Origin: Escherichia coli
Lineage (GTDB): Bacteria > Pseudomonadota > Gammaproteobacteria > Enterobacterales > Enterobacteriaceae
Assembly: GCF_003334305.1 (NCBI RefSeq)
Contig: NZ_QOWS01000016.1
Length of the DNA stretch: 64,000 bases
Reading direction: 5' to 3' (one strand)
The notes under the pieces were generated by a model, which saw only the letters and a list, made by a program, of their open reading frames with translations, did no database searches and was not told the origin of the DNA. Position numbers and translations under genes: made by a program. How positions within the stretch are numbered: the first letter of the stretch is position 1; every line of letters begins with the position of its first letter. Positions 22,572 to 32,703 of this stretch are shown here, in pieces.

Positions 22572-24224
22572 TTACGCGCTCAACAGTTGCTTCATGTCTT
22601 CTTCAACAGTGGTGATAGAACGCAGGCCAAATTTCTCGTTCAGCACCGCCAGCAGGTCTGGTGTCAGGAAACCAGGTGCAGTCGGGCCGGTGACGATATT
22701 TTTCACGCCCAGAGAAAGCAGCGTCAGCAGAATGACGATCGCTTTCTGTTCAAACCAGGAGAGCACCAGCGACAGCGGCAGATCGTTGACACCGCAGCCC
22801 AGTTTCTCTGCCAGAGTGACAGCCAGAATAATCGCTGAGTAAGCATCGTTACATTGACCTGCATCTACCAGACGCGGCAGACCTTCGATATCGCCAAACT
22901 CAAGTTTGTTAAAGCGATATTTACCACAGGCCAGGGTCAGGATCAGGCAGTCATCCGGCACGCTGGTGGCGAAATCGGTGAAGTAGTGGCGCTCGCCGCG
23001 TGCGCCGTCACAGCCACCAAGCAGGAAGATATGACGCAGTTTTTCACGGCTCACCAGATCAATCAGCGTATCCGCTGCGCCAAGCAGCGTCTGGCGGCCA
23101 AAGCCCACGGTGATCAGGTGCGGAATTTCGCTGTACGGGAAGCCCGCCATTTGTTGCGCCTGGGCGATGACCGCAGAAAAATCTTCGCCATCCAGATGAC
23201 GCACACCCGGCCAGCCAACGATGCTGCGGGTCCAGATACGATCGTCATAAGCGCCTACGGTTGGGTCGATGATGCAGTTCGAGGTCATCACGATGGGGCC
23301 AGGGAAACGAGCGAACTCTACTTGCTGATTCTGCCAGCCGCTGCCGTAGTTACCGACCAGATGCTTGAATTTACGCAGCTCCGGGTAGCCATGCGCAGGC
23401 AGCATTTCGCCGTGGGTGTAGACATTAACGCCCGTGCCTTCGGTCTGTTCCAGCAGGTTGTAGAGATCTTTGAGATCGTGACCGGAAATCAGAATGCATT
23501 TACCCGCCGTCGCTTTGACGTTGACCTGGGTTGGCGTCGGGTGACCGTATTTACCGGTTTCGCCTGCATCCAGAATGCTCATCACTTTGAAGTTCATCTG
23601 GCCGATTTCCATTGAACACTCAAGAAGCGCGTTCATATCGGCAGGCCAGGTCCCCAGCCACGCCATGATTTTATGGTACTGGGCATAAATATCGTTGTCG
23701 TATTGACCGAGAACATGCGCGTGTTCCATATAGGCCGCCGCACCTTTCAGGCCATACAGGCACAGCAGACGCAGGCCGAGAATGTTTTCGCCAATCGCCG
23801 CTTTATCTTTGTTAGGGGTAAATTCTGCTGCCTGACGTTGCAGCTCGCCGAGATCGTCGCTCACCAGTTGCAGGTCAGCCATCGGGTTATCGACGCGCGC
23901 GTTGGCATCTACAGCCAGGCATTGCGCTTTCAGCGCCTCGCGCAGGGCAATCGCTTCACGAGCGTAGCCGACAATACGCGGAGAATCGAAGTTAACGTTG
24001 GTCAGGGTTGAGAAAAAGGCACGTGGCGCGAAGCTGTCAACATCGTGGTTGATGATGCCGTATTCACGCGCTTTTACCGCCCAGGCAGAAAGCCCTTGCA
24101 GCGCCGCGATGAGTAAATCCTGAAGGTCAGAAGTTTCCGCCGTTTTACCACACATCCCCTGCGCGTATGAGCAGCCGTTTCCTGCCGGAGTACGGATAGT
24201 TTGTTCACATTGCACACAAAACAT
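22572..24224 (-). CDS. hcp: Hybrid-cluster protein Hcp
   Basis: ORF track 22572..24230 trimmed to ATG at 24224 ([27 protein letters not shown]), 550 aa; N-terminal Cys cluster. Confidence 0.9.
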
Positions 24225-24320
24225 GATCACACCTTTTAAAGTTATATTTAATATACATGTTTAAGGTTAAGACGCTTAACGCGGGGATAAAAGGGATTTT
24301 TCATGCAACTTTAAGGGAGA

Positions 24321-24334
24321 TTGATTTAGCGCAA
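24321..24334 (-). promoter_or_regulatory. FNR-like site upstream of hcp
   Basis: Minus-strand TTGCG-ctaa-ATCAA, 8/10 match to the FNR consensus, ~100 bp upstream of the hcp ATG. Confidence 0.3.
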
Positions 24335-24367
24335 TTTTGGCGGCAGGGATCTACCGCCAGAGAGGTA

Positions 24368-25267
24368 TTACGCAGAGAAAAAGGCGATGAGGATCGGCAC
24401 TAACAGGCTAAGAATAAAACCGTGAACAATTGCCGCCGGGACCATATCCAGCCCGCCAGTACGTTGAAGAACGGGCAGGGTGAAATCCATTGATGTGGCA
24501 CCGCATAAGCCCAGTGCAGTAGAGCGGCTGCGGCGAATCAGCCCAGGGATCAACATAATAGCAATCAGTTCACGGGCCAGATCATTAAAAAACGCCGCGC
24601 TCCCGATTACCGGACCAAAAGATTCGGTCAATAAAATACCGGAAAGAGAATACCAGCCGAAACCGGAGGCCATTGCCAGCGCGGTATTGATGGGGAGATC
24701 AAGAATAAAGGCGTTAATTAAACCACCAATTAATGAACTGACAACCACCACCACGGCGACAATCATTCCCCGGCGATTAAGGACAATCTGCTTTAAGGTC
24801 ATGCCATTATTGCGCAACTGAATACCAACGAGGAAAAGTAGCAAAATTAACGTGTATTCACTGGCTTCGGTCGCGTGTTGTAAGAAAGCCAGTCCACTCA
24901 GACCAATGGCAAAACCAATCACTACTACGCCGCACAGTTTTAGCGACTCCAGCGCCATCGCAATACGCGACGGGAGTTTTTCTTGCTGATGGTGGTTGCG
25001 CCACGGCAGGCCTCGCTCCAGCCACATCAGGGCGGCAATATTACACAGTAAAATAACGGTAATACTGACGGCAGAATAATGCAGAATCGCCAACAGGTTA
25101 CTGGCGAGGTTATCGAGAAACGCCAGACTGATACCCATAAAAAAGAGAATAAGGTAAACCATCCAGCTTAATAGCTGATTAATAACTTTTAACGCAGCTT
25201 GTTGGCGAAGCGGAATGAGGTAACCCACAATCAGGGGAACCAGAATGATTAACAGCCCAGAAAACAT
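24368..25267 (-). CDS. ybjE: Lysine exporter LysO (YbjE)
   Basis: ORF track 24368..25315 trimmed to ATG at 25267 (MFSGLLIILVPLIVGYLIPL...), 299 aa multi-TM protein. Confidence 0.8.
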   Translation of the reverse strand: MFSGLLIILVPLIVGYLIPLRQQAALKVINQLLSWMVYLILFFMGISLAFLDNLASNLLAILHYSAVSITVILLCNIAALMWLERGLPWRNHHQQEKLPSRIAMALESLKLCGVVVIGFAIGLSGLAFLQHATEASEYTLILLLFLVGIQLRNNGMTLKQIVLNRRGMIVAVVVVVSSLIGGLINAFILDLPINTALAMASGFGWYSLSGILLTESFGPVIGSAAFFNDLARELIAIMLIPGLIRRSRSTALGLCGATSMDFTLPVLQRTGGLDMVPAAIVHGFILSLLVPILIAFFSA

Positions 25268-25721
25268 GAAAACCCAGTCCTTGCAAAGATGAAGTCGAAA
25301 TGCGCGATGACACACTACTGAAAGCGGAAGGACGAGTAAAGTTGCAATTAAAAGGAAATGTTATGCATAAGGAGCAGTAGAGTATTCGTTTTCATTTAAA
25401 GATATTCTTGCGCTTTAATTACAAACTGCACCGATGTTGGTGGCGTCAAAATCGCCGAGGCGTTCCCTGAAGGCCGGGGCAGCCCACATGGATGTGGGCT
25501 GAGGGCGCGTTTTACAGGGATGTTACCTCGCGCCCGACCCGGTAGCCGTAAGGTATAAGTCGAGGGCACCGCGCAGCGGCGATTTTGTTCGCCAGAGCCC
25601 GGGGGTGCATGGGGCGGCGGCGATTGGCCGCCCCCTGCGCGCTCTTTGCGCCAGTGGCAATATGTGGCTTAGCTCATGAAAGGAGCGCAACAAGATGATG
25701 AATCAACATATAACAACATCT

Positions 25722-25750
25722 TAAAAAAAGGCCTGATATTACGCCAGGCC
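25722..25750 (-). terminator. Rho-independent terminator of aqpZ
   Basis: GGCCTG...CAGGCC stem; on the minus strand followed by a 7-nt T-run. Confidence 0.6.
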
Positions 25751-25761
25751 TTCTGCGTTAA

Positions 25762-26457
25762 TTAATCACGCTTTTCCAGCAGGGTCCGGTAAATCAGACC
25801 ACCGATAATGCCGCCGACAATTGGCACCACCCAGAAGAACCACAGTTGTTCTAATGCCCAGCCGCCCTGGAAGATAGCAACCGCGGTGCTGCGCGCCGGG
25901 TTAACAGAAGTGTTAGTCACCGGAATACTAATTAAGTGAATCAGGGTTAAGGCCAGACCAATAGCGATCGGCGCAAAACCTGCCGGCGCGAATTTGTCGG
26001 TTGCGCCGTGGATCACCAACAGGAAACCTGCACTCAATACCAGTTCAACTACCAGCGCGGAAAGCATGGAATAACCGCCTGGTGAATGCTCGCCATAACC
26101 GTTAGAAGCAAAACCGCTGGCTGCCGCGTCAAAACCCGTTTTACCACTGGCAATTAAATACAGCAGCGCCGCTGCAACAATACCGCCGACAACCTGGGCA
26201 ATTACGTAGCCAACGACTTCTTTTGCCGGAAAACGTCCGCCAGCCCATAAACCAATAGTGACCGCCGGGTTAAAATGACCACCAGAAATATGACCAACAG
26301 CAAAGGCCATCGTCAGAACGGTCAGACCGAACGCCAACGCCACGCCGGCAAAACCAATGCCTAATTCCGGGAAGCCTGCGGCCAGAACAGCACTACCACA
26401 GCCACCAAAAACAAGCCAGAAAGTACCAAAACATTCAGCTGCTAATTTTCTGAACAT
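25762..26457 (-). CDS. aqpZ: Aquaporin Z
   Basis: ORF track 25762..26463 trimmed to ATG at 26457 ([19 protein letters not shown]...), 231 aa; both NPA motifs present (HFNPAVT, VNPARS). Confidence 0.9.
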
Positions 26458-26882
26458 ATCCACCTCAATTAAAAATTGACCCTGTGAAAAATATGGTCGT
26501 TTTATAGGGTCGTCGTAAAAAAGTGACGACGGAAATAATGCGCGGCTATTTTAAAAACGAAGGCGAGTCATTCACCAGATAAATAAATCCAGTAAATTTG
26601 ATTTAGGGCAACAGCGGGTTGCCCCATATAGTCATTTGTCTGATTGACAGTGTAGTGCAAGCAAAAGATTTAATCCTTTAGGCGTAATAAAAAATAATTT
26701 ATCATGCTAATTATTTGATTTTGTTGTTTTTGCAGACTTATCAGCAAGAGGGAGTATAACGCGATTATTCGCTCATTTTTCAGACATTTGCCATGCTTAA
26801 ATGTGATGTCATCACGTATTAGCAAGGCCTTTCCCGTTATACTGCCAGCGTAAAGGATAAGTCACATATTTCTGGAGGGGAT

Positions 26883-28541
26883 ATGATTCTTGAGCGCGTT
26901 GAAATTGTGGGTTTTCGCGGTATCAACCGTTTGTCGTTGATGCTGGAACAAAACAACGTCCTGATTGGGGAGAACGCGTGGGGTAAATCCAGCTTGCTGG
27001 ACGCCTTAACCCTGCTGCTATCGCCAGAATCAGATCTCTACCATTTTGAGCGCGACGATTTCTGGTTCCCGCCGGGAGATATCAACGGGCGAGAACATCA
27101 TCTGCATATTATTTTGACCTTCCGCGAATCGCTGCCAGGCCGACATCGGGTTCGCCGTTATCGGCCGCTGGAAGCGTGCTGGACGCCATGCACCGATGGC
27201 TATCACCGTATTTTTTATCGTCTGGAAGGGGAGAGTGCGGAAGACGGCAGCGTGATGACACTGCGCAGTTTTCTCGATAAAGACGGACATCCGATTGATG
27301 TCGAGGATATTAACGATCAGGCACGCCATCTGGTGCGTTTAATGCCGGTGCTGCGCTTGCGTGATGCCCGTTTTATGCGCCGTATTCGTAACGGCACGGT
27401 GCCAAATGTTCCCAATGTGGAAGTCACCGCGCGCCAGCTCGATTTCCTCGCCCGTGAGTTGTCCTCACATCCGCAAAATCTCTCTGATGGACAGATTCGT
27501 CAGGGACTTTCCGCAATGGTGCAGTTGCTTGAGCATTATTTCTCTGAGCAGGGGGCTGGACAGGCGCGATATCGTTTAATGCGGCGGCGGGCCAGCAATG
27601 AGCAACGAAGCTGGCGCTATCTGGACATCATCAACCGGATGATTGACCGACCTGGAGGGCGCTCGTATCGGGTTATTTTGCTCGGCCTGTTTGCTACTTT
27701 ATTGCAGGCAAAAGGCACATTGAGACTGGATAAAGACGCGCGTCCGTTATTGCTAATTGAAGATCCAGAAACCCGCCTGCATCCGATTATGCTTTCCGTT
27801 GCCTGGCATCTGTTGAATCTTTTGCCTTTACAGCGTATTGCTACCACCAACTCTGGCGAGCTGCTTTCGTTAACTCCAGTGGAACATGTTTGCCGCCTGG
27901 TGCGTGAATCTTCTCGTGTTGCCGCCTGGCGTCTGGGGCCAAGTGGCTTGAGCACCGAAGACAGCCGCCGCATCTCTTTTCACATTCGTTTTAATCGTCC
28001 GTCATCGCTGTTTGCTCGCTGCTGGTTGCTGGTGGAAGGGGAAACGGAAACCTGGGTTATCAATGAACTGGCGCGTCAGTGCGGACATCATTTTGATGCC
28101 GAAGGGATCAAGGTCATTGAGTTTGCCCAGTCCGGGCTAAAGCCACTGGTTAAATTTGCCCGCCGAATGGGGATTGAATGGCATGTACTGGTCGATGGCG
28201 ATGAAGCAGGGAAGAAATATGCCGCTACGGTACGCAGCCTGTTGAATAACGATCGGGAAGCCGAACGAGAACATTTAACGGCGTTACCGGCGCTGGATAT
28301 GGAACATTTTATGTATCGCCAGGGATTTTCCGATGTGTTCCACCGCGTGGCGCAAATCCCGGAAAATGTACCGATGAATCTGCGCAAAATTATCTCGAAA
28401 GCGATCCATCGCTCTTCCAAACCCGATCTTGCCATTGAAGTGGCAATGGAGGCCGGACGTCGTGGTGTGGACTCCGTACCGACGCTGCTGAAAAAAATGT
28501 TCTCACGCGTGCTGTGGCTGGCGCGCGGTCGCGCGGATTAA
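26883..28541 (+). CDS. ybjD: OLD-family protein YbjD: N-terminal ABC-type ATPase plus C-terminal Toprim domain, predicted nuclease of unknown role
   Basis: 552-aa ORF with GGAGGGG RBS; Walker A GENAWGKSS (~nt 26967-26990); acidic Walker-B-like patch LLLIEDPE; Toprim glutamate in LLVEGETE (~nt 28035-28049) and DxD in VDGDEAG (~nt 28194-28205). Confidence 0.85.
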   Translation: MILERVEIVGFRGINRLSLMLEQNNVLIGENAWGKSSLLDALTLLLSPESDLYHFERDDFWFPPGDINGREHHLHIILTFRESLPGRHRVRRYRPLEACWTPCTDGYHRIFYRLEGESAEDGSVMTLRSFLDKDGHPIDVEDINDQARHLVRLMPVLRLRDARFMRRIRNGTVPNVPNVEVTARQLDFLARELSSHPQNLSDGQIRQGLSAMVQLLEHYFSEQGAGQARYRLMRRRASNEQRSWRYLDIINRMIDRPGGRSYRVILLGLFATLLQAKGTLRLDKDARPLLLIEDPETRLHPIMLSVAWHLLNLLPLQRIATTNSGELLSLTPVEHVCRLVRESSRVAAWRLGPSGLSTEDSRRISFHIRFNRPSSLFARCWLLVEGETETWVINELARQCGHHFDAEGIKVIEFAQSGLKPLVKFARRMGIEWHVLVDGDEAGKKYAATVRSLLNNDREAEREHLTALPALDMEHFMYRQGFSDVFHRVAQIPENVPMNLRKIISKAIHRSSKPDLAIEVAMEAGRRGVDSVPTLLKKMFSRVLWLARGRAD

Positions 28542-29530
28542 CCGCGAAACATCGTGGCCATTTGTGGCTGAATAGCGTCGAGCATCTCATAGCGCCGACG
28601 GTATTCAGCCCGTTTTTTACTGGCGATTTCGGCAATCTCTTTTCGTGCTATCTGTGCTGGAAGGCGGTAATGGCGTTCAGCATCACATACGCCGCCAACC
28701 GATTCCCAGAAAGCGTTGTAATCGGCATGGATCTTGCCTTCTTTATCACGATAACGCAGGCTGCGGTAAATATGCGTTTCATTGCTGACGGCAATAATCT
28801 GCTCTACCTGCAAACGTTGGGCAAACAGACAGGCCGCTTCCATCACGAGGCGTTTGGGAAATAGCCCGTGGCAGGCTTTCGTCGCATTCTGGATTTCCTG
28901 ATGTGGAATTTCCCATTTTGCGCCTTGCAGTCCGCCAATAAACATCGTTCTTTTCCCCTGATATTCACACAGGGTAAACGTGATCTCTGCCAGAGGAATA
29001 CCTTCGCTGTTGCGAAACAGGATTGTGCTGTCACCTTCTTTATCCATTGAGATCATCATGGTCAGCTCAAGCGTGAACTGCTCGCCGTTTTTGCCTTCCA
29101 GTTTAGCCAGTTGCAGCCCGGGGGTATTCAAATATAAGCTGAATTCTTCCGCCGACATACATCCGCGGAGTAACGCATAATGGTAACGTAACGCCTCCAG
29201 CAATTGCTTACGGCTAAGATTCGCCGCAAGGTAAGGGCGATGCAGACGCACAGGCAGTCGCGGTTGGCGCGTTAACAACACATTGAGATTAGGCCAGTGG
29301 GAAAGTTCGTTCATCCACTCAACGCTTAAACGCGGCATAATCAACGAGCGCAGCAAAAATTTCTGGCGAAAACTACGGCGATGCCAGAATTTACCCGGCC
29401 GACACTGTCCACGTGCCAGACTAAGAAAAAGTGACAGGCTGCTGAGAGATTCAGATGGCGTAAAGGTCCGTTCAGTTAGCTGCGACATATTCATGAAATC
29501 AATGGTTATACATGACGTCGATTTCACCAT
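28538..29530 (-). CDS. ybjX: VirK/DUF535-family protein YbjX
   Basis: 330-aa ORF; stop overlaps ybjD stop by ~3 nt (convergent). Alternative starts at ~29494/29488 (MNMSQLTER...) cannot be excluded; no clear RBS at any candidate. Confidence 0.7.
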   Translation of the reverse strand: MVKSTSCITIDFMNMSQLTERTFTPSESLSSLSLFLSLARGQCRPGKFWHRRSFRQKFLLRSLIMPRLSVEWMNELSHWPNLNVLLTRQPRLPVRLHRPYLAANLSRKQLLEALRYHYALLRGCMSAEEFSLYLNTPGLQLAKLEGKNGEQFTLELTMMISMDKEGDSTILFRNSEGIPLAEITFTLCEYQGKRTMFIGGLQGAKWEIPHQEIQNATKACHGLFPKRLVMEAACLFAQRLQVEQIIAVSNETHIYRSLRYRDKEGKIHADYNAFWESVGGVCDAERHYRLPAQIARKEIAEIASKKRAEYRRRYEMLDAIQPQMATMFRG

Positions 29531-29585
29531 TGCGTATCTTAACCAAACATCAATAGTGTGATTACTAACGTAAATTTTAGGGTTT

Positions 29586-29602
29586 TGTTGATATTTCGTT
29601 GA
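29586..29602 (+). promoter_or_regulatory. PhoP-box-like direct repeat in the ybjX-macA divergent region
   Basis: TGTTGA-tattt-CGTTGA hexamer direct repeat with 5-nt spacer, ~43 bp upstream of the macA ATG. Confidence 0.3.
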
Positions 29603-29644
29603 AGTTAATGACCCGGATTGGCATATGGAGTATTCAGAATATTT

Positions 29645-30760
29645 ATGAAAAAGCGGAAAACCGTGAAGAAGCGTTACGTTATTGCGCTGGTGATAGTCAT
29701 CGCCGGACTGATTACGTTATGGAGAATTCTTAACGCACCCGTGCCGACTTATCAGACACTGATTGTGCGCCCCGGTGATTTACAGCAAAGCGTGCTGGCG
29801 ACCGGAAAGCTGGACGCGCTGCGTAAGGTTGACGTGGGCGCGCAGGTCAGCGGTCAGTTGAAAACTCTGTCGGTGGCGATTGGCGATAAAGTAAAAAAAG
29901 ACCAGCTTTTAGGGGTTATTGATCCTGAACAGGCTGAAAACCAGATTAAGGAGGTCGAAGCAACGCTGATGGAGCTACGTGCGCAGCGGCAGCAGGCGGA
30001 AGCGGAGCTGAAACTGGCGCGGGTGACGTATTCCCGTCAGCAACGTCTGGCACAAACGCAGGCGGTTTCACAGCAGGATCTCGACACCGCCGCGACGGAG
30101 ATGGCTGTGAAACAGGCGCAAATTGGCACCATTGACGCGCAAATCAAGCGCAATCAGGCCTCTCTCGATACGGCTAAAACCAATCTCGATTACACTCGCA
30201 TCGTTGCCCCGATGGCCGGGGAAGTCACGCAAATCACCACTCTGCAAGGCCAGACGGTGATTGCCGCACAACAAGCACCGAACATTCTGACGCTGGCAGA
30301 TATGAGCACCATGCTGGTAAAAGCGCAGGTTTCTGAAGCGGATGTAATCCACCTGAAGCCGGGGCAAAAAGCCTGGTTTACGGTACTTGGCGATCCACTG
30401 ACGCGCTACGAGGGGCAAATCAAGGATGTACTACCGACGCCGGAAAAGGTTAACGACGCTATTTTCTATTACGCCCGTTTTGAAGTCCCCAACCCCAATG
30501 GTTTGCTGCGGCTGGATATGACTGCGCAAGTGCATATTCAGCTCACCGATGTGAAAAATGTGCTGACGATCCCTCTGTCGGCGTTAGGCGATCCGGTTGG
30601 CGATAATCGTTATAAAGTCAAATTGTTGCGTAATGGTGAAACACGCGAGCGTGAAGTGACGATTGGCGCACGTAACGATACCGATGTTGAGATTGTCAAA
30701 GGGCTTGAAGCGGGCGATGAAGTGGTGATTGGTGAGGCCAAACCAGGAGCTGCACAATGA
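29645..30760 (+). CDS. macA: Macrolide efflux membrane fusion protein MacA
   Basis: ORF track 29618..30760 trimmed to ATG at 29645 ([18 protein letters not shown]...), 371 aa; coiled-coil periplasmic adaptor. Confidence 0.9.
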
Positions 30761-32703
30761 CGCCTTTGCTCGAATTAAAGGATATTCGTCGCAGCTATCC
30801 TGCCGGTGATGAGCAGGTTGAGGTGCTGAAGGGCATCACCCTCGATATTTATGCCGGTGAGATGGTAGCGATTGTTGGCGCTTCAGGTTCCGGTAAATCG
30901 ACCCTGATGAATATTCTCGGCTGTCTGGATAAGGCCACCAGCGGCACCTATCGCGTCGCCGGTCAGGATGTTGCCACACTGGACGCCGATGCGCTGGCGC
31001 AACTGCGCCGCGAGCATTTCGGCTTTATTTTCCAGCGTTACCATTTACTTTCGCATTTAACCGCCGAGCAGAACGTTGAAGTACCCGCCGTCTATGCCGG
31101 TCTTGAGCGGAAACAGCGGCTGCTTCGCGCCCAGGGGTTACTGCAACGACTGGGGCTGGAAGACCGTACAGAGTATTATCCGGCACAGCTTTCGGGTGGT
31201 CAGCAACAGCGCGTCAGCATCGCGCGGGCATTGATGAACGGCGGTCAGGTAATTCTTGCCGATGAACCAACCGGCGCACTGGACAGCCATTCTGGCGAAG
31301 AGGTGATGGCGATCCTGCATCAGCTGCGCGATCGCGGGCATACGGTGATTATCGTCACCCACGATCCGCAGGTCGCTGCTCAGGCCGAGCGGGTGATCGA
31401 AATTCGCGACGGCGAAATTGTGCGCAATCCTCCCGCCATTGAAAAAGTGAATGTTGCTGGCGGGACGGAGCCTGTTGTCAACACGGTGTCTGGCTGGCGG
31501 CAGTTTGTCAGCGGTTTTAACGAGGCGCTGACGATGGCATGGCGGGCGCTGGCAGCGAATAAAATGCGTACTTTACTGACCATGCTGGGGATTATTATCG
31601 GTATTGCGTCGGTGGTTTCCATTGTCGTGGTGGGTGACGCCGCCAAACAAATGGTGCTGGCGGATATTCGTTCTATTGGTACGAATACTATTGATGTCTA
31701 TCCCGGGAAAGATTTTGGCGATGACGATCCGCAATATCAGCAGGCGCTGAAGTACGACGACTTAATCGCCATCCAAAAACAACCGTGGGTCGCCTCAGCC
31801 ACACCTGCCGTCTCGCAAAACCTGCGCCTGCGTTATAACAATGTTGATGTTGCTGCCAGTGCCAATGGCGTGAGCGGCGATTATTTTAATGTCTATGGCA
31901 TGACCTTCAGTGAAGGAAACACCTTTAATCAGGAGCAGCTGAACGGTCGTGCGCAGGTCGTGGTTCTCGACAGTAATACTCGCCGCCAGCTTTTCCCCCA
32001 TAAAGCAGATGTGGTTGGCGAGGTGATTCTGGTCGGCAATATGCCCGCCAGAGTCATTGGTGTGGCGGAAGAAAAACAGTCGATGTTTGGTAGCAGTAAA
32101 GTGCTGCGTGTCTGGCTACCTTACAGCACGATGTCCGGGCGAGTTATGGGCCAGTCGTGGCTGAACTCCATTACTGTCAGGGTAAAAGAAGGATTTGACA
32201 GCGCCGAGGCGGAACAGCAACTCACGCGTTTACTTTCACTGCGCCACGGAAAGAAGGATTTCTTTACCTGGAACATGGACGGCGTCTTGAAAACTGTTGA
32301 AAAGACCACACGTACTTTACAACTGTTTCTGACGCTGGTGGCGGTGATTTCGCTGGTGGTGGGCGGTATTGGTGTAATGAATATTATGCTGGTGTCAGTG
32401 ACCGAGCGGACGCGGGAAATTGGCATTCGCATGGCTGTAGGTGCGCGAGCAAGCGATGTTTTGCAACAGTTCCTGATCGAAGCCGTACTGGTTTGCCTGG
32501 TGGGTGGCGCGTTGGGAATAACTCTGTCACTGTTAATTGCTTTCACCTTGCAGCTTTTCTTACCCGGCTGGGAGATTGGTTTTTCACCGTTGGCACTGCT
32601 GCTGGCGTTTCTCTGCTCGACGGCCACCGGGATTTTATTTGGATGGTTACCCGCACGAAATGCGGCACGACTGGATCCAGTAGATGCTCTGGCACGAGAG
32701 TAA
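30757..32703 (+). CDS. macB: Macrolide efflux ABC transporter MacB (ATPase-permease fusion)
   Basis: 648-aa ORF overlapping macA stop (ATGA); Walker [10 protein letters not shown], signature LSGGQQQR, C-terminal FtsX-type permease. Confidence 0.9.

Follow-up and report, generated by a model that had tools for sequence, protein, structure and literature searches.

Why should a gene be strongly constrained across a bacterial order when neither its deletion nor the deletion of its nuclease domain changes anything measured so far? This puzzle is raised by ybjD, a member of the Escherichia coli “y-ome” whose product belongs to the OLD nucleases, a widespread and poorly understood class of effectors. 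The copy considered here lies in a 64,000-nt stretch of E. coli DNA (GCF_003334305.1, contig NZ_QOWS01000016.1; hereafter the window), where an ATG-initiated open reading frame at 26883..28541 on the plus strand encodes 552 aa plus a stop codon. It is 100% identical to the RefSeq E. coli ybjD, and its protein is also 100% identical to many other E. coli records, while its DNA is about 97% identical to that of the laboratory strain JB41. The explanation that fits best, and that is very probably right, is that YbjD is a stand-alone, vertically inherited OLD-family enzyme of the core genome, for which a nucleotide-switched, nuclease-requiring cellular role is more likely than one in mobile defence.

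Part of this picture was known beforehand, since YbjD is treated in two published studies and carries the RefSeq label “ATP-dependent endonuclease”. Schiltz et al. (2019) searched with E. coli YbjD (b0876) and obtained 833 OLD homologues, from which the OLD classes were defined; in their scheme E. coli falls under Class 1, whose members are single genes (PMC6755086). The gene itself was studied by Atahualpa et al. (MicroPubl Biol, May 2026), who proposed the name oldB (PMC13261556). The domain architecture, the solitary context and the Class 1 label are therefore already published; what is added here is the order-wide synteny, the strength of selection domain by domain, the contrast between nuclease and ATPase conservation in the family, and a C-terminal region that resembles that of Class 2 proteins.

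An earlier note on this DNA had described a 552-aa product with the motifs GENAWGKSS, LLLIEDPE, LLVEGETE and VDGDEAG and had taken it for an OLD-family fusion of an ABC ATPase with a Toprim domain. All four motifs are present, and the architecture is borne out by profile searches: Pfam assigns DUF2813 to residues 1-375 (E=3.5e-160) and OLD-like_TOPRIM (PF20469) to residues 376-440 (E=7.8e-16). Among the PADLOC models, many of those for GajA match, the best being PDLC00094 at 7e-80 over residues 260-549; the Old model matches at 2e-24, and the AriA model is confined to residues 1-51, the P-loop region. Searches of NCBIfam returned matches at the level of the P-loop only, far below the cut-offs, such as that to the retron Eco8 effector model (E=1.6e-4, 20.5 bits where the cutoff is 250), so that YbjD has no curated NCBIfam equivalog. 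A profile built from 63 diverse homologues matches the Class 1 OLD protein of Thermus scotoductus (TsOLD) at 2e-21 and Bacillus cereus GajA at 1.4e-19. The AlphaFold2 model is of high quality (mean predicted local distance difference test score, pLDDT, 88.8; predicted template modelling score, pTM, 0.87), and its best Foldseek matches in the PDB are GajA, TsOLD and the OLD protein of retron-Eco8. The overall fold agrees with those solved for OLD proteins, and so does the helical insertion of the ATPase that serves them as a dimerisation domain. The identity and architecture of YbjD as an OLD-family ATPase-Toprim protein are thus near certain, and the combined profile and fold evidence excludes a generic ABC ATPase lacking a Toprim fold.

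The anatomy of the protein can be followed along the gene (all features on the plus strand). The Walker A motif, or P-loop, GENAWGKSS occupies 26967..26993 (residues 29-37) and contains K35. The helical insertion in the ATPase head lies at 27411..27713 (residues ~177-277) and is predicted to consist of four long helices (177-195, 202-221, 241-255 and 259-277) that separate the two lobes of the ATPase; no other region of YbjD is so poorly conserved. The Walker B motif LLLIEDPE (residues 289-296, with D294 and E296) and the D-loop His300 (in RLHP) follow at 27747..27782. In the profile alignment to the TsOLD segment IIEEPEMYLHP, D294 stands opposite Ts E276 and H300 opposite Ts H283. The H-loop TTNSGELL (27843..27866, residues 321-328) aligns to sTHS in both TsOLD and GajA, and Asn323 replaces the canonical switch histidine, an exchange that Schiltz et al. 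(2020, PMC7049728) describe as common in Class 1. The Toprim core (28014..28322, residues 378-480) carries LLVEGETE at 382-389 and VDGDEAG at 437-443. With ligand roles taken from Ts E377/D431/D433 and D381/S478/E480, and from the residue roles described for TsOLD and P2 Old (PMC7049728), E385, D438 and D440 are assigned by homology to metal A and E389, D472 and E474 to metal B. The chain ends in a C-terminal helical subdomain (28323..28538, residues 481-552) with an invariant K513-P514.

How this anatomy has been treated by selection was analysed in 80 sequences (79 recovered orthologues and the window copy) and in a family alignment of 63 distant homologues at 28-54% identity. All 80 compared sequences are intact, at 550-556 aa. 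The ratio of nonsynonymous to synonymous substitution rates (dN/dS) of ybjD is 0.015 within Escherichia and 0.033 against Citrobacter, and is lowest in the Toprim core (0.007 and 0.015). All six metal ligands and K513 are kept in 80/80 orthologues, save for D472, which varies in one, and the distant homologues tell the same story: E385, E387, E389, D440 and E474 are invariant, D438 and D472 are each present in 62/63, and K513 is invariant together with several Toprim glycines and aromatics. The ATPase residues K35, D294, E296, H300 and N323 are likewise each found in 80/80 of the Enterobacterales orthologues. In the wider family, however, the Walker A lysine position reads K56/R6/S1, the Walker B aspartate position D36/E18/N5/A2/T1 and the H-loop residue N37/Q10/H10/Y5. 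The Toprim site is thus the most conserved part of YbjD, while the catalytic residues of the ATPase vary across the family, and it is uncertain, given Asn323 and these family-variable positions, whether YbjD would hydrolyse ATP robustly.

These patterns bear on the proposal that YbjD is a generic ABC- or SMC-like ATPase and that its C-terminal domain does not work as a Toprim nuclease. Replacement of the H-loop histidine by asparagine could be counted in its favour, as could the report that Toprim deletion and triple acidic mutants are without effect on the published phenotypes (PMC13261556). The OLD-like_TOPRIM match, the invariance or near-invariance of the six metal ligands and K513 in both sets, and a C-terminal model (pLDDT 93.6) that superposes on a solved OLD Toprim region (6nk8) at 2.4 Å all speak against it, and the proposal is highly improbable.

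The earlier note had also supposed that ybjD is a core-genome gene. Taking as the query ybjD with its upstream region, and requiring at least 80% of the query at no less than 95% identity, the gene was found in 5425/5426 complete E. coli genomes. A scan of one genome per species confirmed at least 494 relatives. The best 80 of these are all from Enterobacterales, ranging from Escherichia (97-99%) through Citrobacter, Klebsiella, Enterobacter, Cedecea and Mangrovibacter to Pectobacterium, Brenneria, Serratia and Hafnia at 64-68%. Full-length copies were found by tblastn further afield, in Yersinia (65%), Proteus (56%), Aeromonas (45%) and Vibrio (43%). The order hcp-lysO-(aqpZ)-ybjD-(ybjX)-macA-macB is kept in nearly all of the 80 loci that have enough flanking sequence; ybjD is constant across them, while aqpZ and ybjX come and go. 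The pairwise distances of YbjD correlate with those of Hcp, LysO, MacA and MacB (Pearson 0.89-0.93), and its rate of evolution equals that of LysO, MacA and MacB. Overall, ybjD is a core gene that is passed on vertically throughout Enterobacterales and held under strong purifying selection, and the traits that mark mobile defence genes, namely patchy distribution, residence in mobile elements or defence islands and rapid turnover, are not those of ybjD.

An origin of ybjD in phages or plasmids was considered and rejected. A tblastn search of 50,697 phage records yielded no real copy of the gene, the one match being a fragment of 98 residues in a 2-kb unannotated record. The plasmid matches listed, where record lengths are shown, are mostly replicons on the Mb scale, with a few plasmid-sized E. 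coli records (42-88 kb). Many of the “plasmid” records in PLSDB (H14-H19, H24, H28-H33) are 0.5-5 Mb long and hold ybjD and ybjX in their chromosomal context, and for both reasons appear to be mislabelled chromosomes or chromids; six “plasmid” places for ybjD also came up among the E. coli genomes. Matches to PHROG families are very strong, with phrog_4747 at 2.9e-116 (ybjD, 26883-28538) and phrog_35383 at 2.4e-152 (ybjX, 28541-29497). Since there is no real phage copy of ybjD (ybjX was not searched), these families probably represent host genes taken in through imprecise prophage boundaries.

What is known of the phenotype comes from the study of Atahualpa et al. (PMC13261556). They found ybjD to be expressed and saw no phage phenotype in the Keio knockout. 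Induction of YbjD with arabinose lowers the plating of Bas18 and Bas20 and reduces the plaque size of Bas64-68, so that 7/68 BASEL phages are affected at a non-toxic inducer level. These effects are unchanged when the Toprim region (378-552) is deleted or three of its acidic residues are mutated, and are abolished by deletion of the ATPase domain. The K35A mutant keeps the effect and is more toxic, and recBC(ts) cells are not killed by YbjD, unlike what is seen with P2 Old.

As the same study proposes, YbjD could be a true single-gene (Class 1) immune nuclease that senses a phage cue, stops infection and happens to have become fixed in the core genome. This purely defensive reading is a live rival, possible although somewhat doubtful. 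It draws on the anti-phage effects just described, on the fact that all characterised bacterial OLDs (P2 Old, Vc OLD, GajA, Eco8 OLD and AriAB) are defensive (PMC10568477, PMC12392090), and on the best profile matches of YbjD being models of defence systems. The chromosomal knockout nevertheless leaves phage susceptibility as it was, and the phenotype needs overexpression and does not need the nuclease (PMC13261556); only 7 of the 68 phages respond. The distribution is also unlike that of defence genes, being ubiquitous, syntenic, clock-like and away from any defence island, and the matches inspected include neither a real copy in a phage nor one that is clearly borne by a plasmid.

A stand-alone enzyme with a cellular task remains our preferred explanation, and its parts are as follows. 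Sequence, profiles and fold show an N-terminal ABC/SMC-type ATPase head, split by the helical insertion and fused to a Toprim domain whose two-metal site is complete, with a helical tail that bears an invariant Lys. From their homology to TsOLD, BpOLD and GajA, two copies of YbjD would dimerise through the insertion, as described for TsOLD and GajA (PMC7049728, PMC10568477), and two-metal catalysis would cut or nick nucleic acid. The ATPase head might act as a nucleotide-controlled switch and not as a motor, such that YbjD with bound nucleotide would be quiescent and loss of binding would release a toxic activity of the half made up of ATPase and insertion. This reading of the head as a switch is suggested by the relaxation of the ATPase catalytic residues across the family alongside nearly invariant nuclease ligands, and by the behaviour of K35A, more toxic yet still active in vivo, which resembles the ATP-inhibited GajA; the other published genetics of YbjD agrees with it (PMC13261556). 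Because selection is strongest on the nuclease site, we take the native role to need the nuclease; the published phenotypes do not depend on it, which makes it likely that the native function has yet to be seen. That role might be a constitutive one, for example genome or RNA surveillance that is also able to hit some phages. For YbjD such a constitutive function is more likely than a typical mobile defence system, and a conserved cellular function going beyond classical mobile defence is plausible, if still short of probable.

Several points weigh against this explanation. The nuclease and ATPase activities of YbjD are inferred from its homologues, and the models of dimerisation and switching come from proteins just 15-22% identical to it. 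The sole reported phenotypes are anti-phage (Bas18, Bas20 and the smaller plaques of Bas64-68), and since they are Toprim-independent the published data neither show use of the nuclease nor exclude a role in defence. The knockout lives and shows no known phenotype, which speaks against an important housekeeping role in laboratory conditions. Finally, immunity is compatible with vertical inheritance as such, since some defence genes do end up as fixed parts of core genomes.

The immediate surroundings of ybjD agree with a gene that stands on its own. In the window, hcp, lysO and aqpZ (25762-26463), all three on the minus strand, lie upstream, and the minus-strand ybjX (28538-29530) followed by macA and macB lies downstream. 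With aqpZ divergent and ybjX convergent, ybjD has no partner on its own strand, just as the earlier note had it when describing a solitary gene in a conserved context, and the order is kept across Enterobacterales. The GC content of ybjD (53%, and 55% at third codon positions) is similar to that of its flanks. A Shine-Dalgarno sequence GGAGG, read from the sequence and conserved across genera, is found at 26874..26878, 4 nt before the ATG. A candidate -10 element TATACT (26838..26843, within GyTATACT) lies 39 nt upstream of the ATG, and GyTATACT is kept in nearly all of 25 aligned upstream regions from genera of Enterobacteriaceae, where the remaining intergenic sequence cannot be aligned. The gene is monocistronic and has its own conserved -10-like element, which would fit an autonomous promoter. 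A generic promoter scan called no site in the aqpZ-ybjD intergenic region, the candidate -10 included, and a LexA box, a CRP site and a PhoP box were looked for in the same region and not found.

Two further features of this region were noted. A perfect palindrome, GTGATG-T-CATCAC, at 26803-26815, just upstream of the -10 element and 68-80 nt upstream of the ATG, is retained in E. albertii apart from one mismatch but not in other genera; either chance or a species-specific operator could account for it. Downstream of the -10 element, a block of the 5′ untranslated region resembling GATAACTTAAAGGAAAAAGT (window 26844-26869; loci L004-L067) is common to many genera; no Rfam family matches it, nor is there any within 24000-31000, and an RNA element or retron at ybjD was rejected accordingly. 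In Edwardsiella, the region upstream of ybjD (ETAE_2212) holds one of the top two chromatin immunoprecipitation sequencing peaks of the xenogeneic nucleoid protein EnrR (PMC9023278). The E. coli aqpZ-ybjD intergenic region is AT-rich (37% GC), which makes binding of an H-NS-type protein plausible there.

At its other end, ybjD overlaps the convergent ybjX reading frame by 4 nt (TTAA, 28538..28541). No intergenic terminator separates the two genes, and the sole terminator-like hairpin downstream of ybjD (28597-28614) lies inside the ybjX coding sequence. The pair is among the convergent excludons detected by RNA sequencing in E. coli (PMC12288877). A cathelicidin peptide has been reported to give a 1.3 log2 “induction” of ybjD, alongside arn and evgS genes (PMC6737244); if the sequencing was not strand-specific, this could be antisense signal from ybjX. 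The ybjX gene itself (VirK/YbjX family; loci L003-L081) is only 44-60% identical where ybjD, lysO and macAB are 80-91%. It thus evolves in quite another way than its neighbours: its distances correlate poorly with those of YbjD (Pearson 0.47), with a mean distance of 0.46 against 0.18, and it is absent in Klebsiella, Raoultella, Trabulsiella and others. This pattern suggests diversifying selection or allele replacement at the ybjX locus.

Beyond the orthologues, five distant DUF2813 homologues are likewise solitary among unrelated neighbours, in housekeeping contexts such as pgpA/dxs, ushA/moeA and cysS/yicC, and no UvrD-like helicase stands beside the distant homologues examined. The sole context seen with a DNA-metabolism neighbour is that of P0184 (L092-L094), which has on its own strand a PhdYeFM/PIN toxin-antitoxin pair upstream and, 47 nt downstream, a gene for a family-B DNA polymerase (polB). 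For P0138 (L086-L088) and P0162 (L095), the DUF2813 OLD gene is next to or near a gene for a YicC-like endoribonuclease, and in the former an AAA-ATPase_like/PDDEXK_9 gene also lies upstream on the same strand; the proximity of YicC-like and OLD genes may be lineage synteny and not a functional link. Metagenomic DUF2813/OLD proteins of 1000-1867 aa also occur (P0149 at L085, P0162, P0163, P0165, P0175 and P0196). In P0162, an insertion of ~220 aa follows the P-loop segment and a C-terminal extension of ~490 aa is added, with no Pfam match. On brief inspection these long proteins were not informative as a guide to YbjD.

The question of which OLD class YbjD belongs to has a divided answer. As a stand-alone gene with no conserved partner, ybjD fits the definition of Class 1 (Schiltz 2019, Dot 2023), although the traits of the TsOLD prototype, which lacks an Insert-3 helix between alpha3 and beta4 as well as a C-terminal helical domain, are not shared by YbjD. 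Its C-terminal region superposes on that of the Class 2 protein BpOLD of B. pseudomallei (6nk8) with a value of 17.4 over 164 residues at 2.4 Å, compared with 12.7 over 174 residues at 3.4 Å for GajA, also of Class 2, and 12.2 over 148 residues at 3.1 Å for the Class 1 TsOLD. In the predicted model, then, this region looks most like that of Class 2 OLDs. The profile searches and structure prediction that the earlier note had called for therefore uphold the OLD assignment, with a Class 1 gene arrangement and a Class 2-like C terminus. An orphaned Gabija system, in which YbjD would be a Class 2 GajA remnant that has lost its GajB helicase, is suggested by the GajA profile match, yet a Gabija system takes more than a profile match. 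The window, the 80 orthologous loci and the distant-homologue loci examined all lack a neighbouring helicase gene, and this improbable origin was rejected. As to Class 3, the retron effectors, no reverse transcriptase reading frame lies nearby, and the two-protein layout of Class 4 (PARIS AriA/AriB) differs from the single 552-aa reading frame in which ATPase and Toprim are fused. The label matters for prevalence: if YbjD orthologues are counted as Class 1 OLDs, the class is far commoner than the DefenseFinder figure of 0.45% of genomes quoted for it. Knowing what YbjD does would show whether bacterial OLDs have conserved cellular roles and whether “Class 1” lumps together unrelated biology.

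Comparison with the characterised OLD proteins places YbjD apart from each of them in some respect. TsOLD (PDB 6P74, Class 1) has Glu in Walker B and His in the H-loop, where YbjD has the canonical Asp and an Asn, and the helical C-terminal subdomain is longer in YbjD, where an invariant Lys follows the metal-B Glu by 39 residues. Relative to GajA (8U7I/8SM3), YbjD has no GajB partner in the family sampled and is only 15-17% identical to the solved proteins; it is also chromosomal and core, whereas Gabija GajA is patchy and island-borne. The Class 1 defence nucleases P2 Old and Vc OLD, the latter of Vibrio cholerae, are, like YbjD, single-gene OLD proteins. P2 Old, to which YbjD is 18% identical (PMC6755086), comes from a prophage, kills recBC cells, cleaves tRNA and depends on its ATPase residues as well as on those of its Toprim domain, whereas the toxicity of YbjD is RecBC-independent and Toprim-independent. 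The gene for Vc OLD resides on a mobile element, and the protein requires its ATP-binding residues.

The remaining comparison is with Cran1, an OLD protein of Sulfolobales that is a nickase, essential and cell-cycle regulated, with no antiviral activity (PMC12796447), and that sets the precedent for OLD enzymes holding cellular roles. Perhaps the DUF2813 clade is a bacterial counterpart of Cran1, an OLD enzyme domesticated for a cellular task, although we put this forward only tentatively. The task could be the nicking or processing of chromosomal DNA, or of some RNA, in replication, repair or stress; the anti-phage effects of overexpression would be a by-product of nucleic acid binding by the ATPase and insertion half, and near-perfect Toprim conservation would mark the true function. 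Cran1 is essential, whereas ybjD is dispensable in the laboratory, and the presumed homology is distant. Cran1 and YbjD are nonetheless alike in their vertical inheritance within one order, in showing no sign of horizontal transfer and in an overexpression toxicity that depends on the ATPase domain (PMC12796447).

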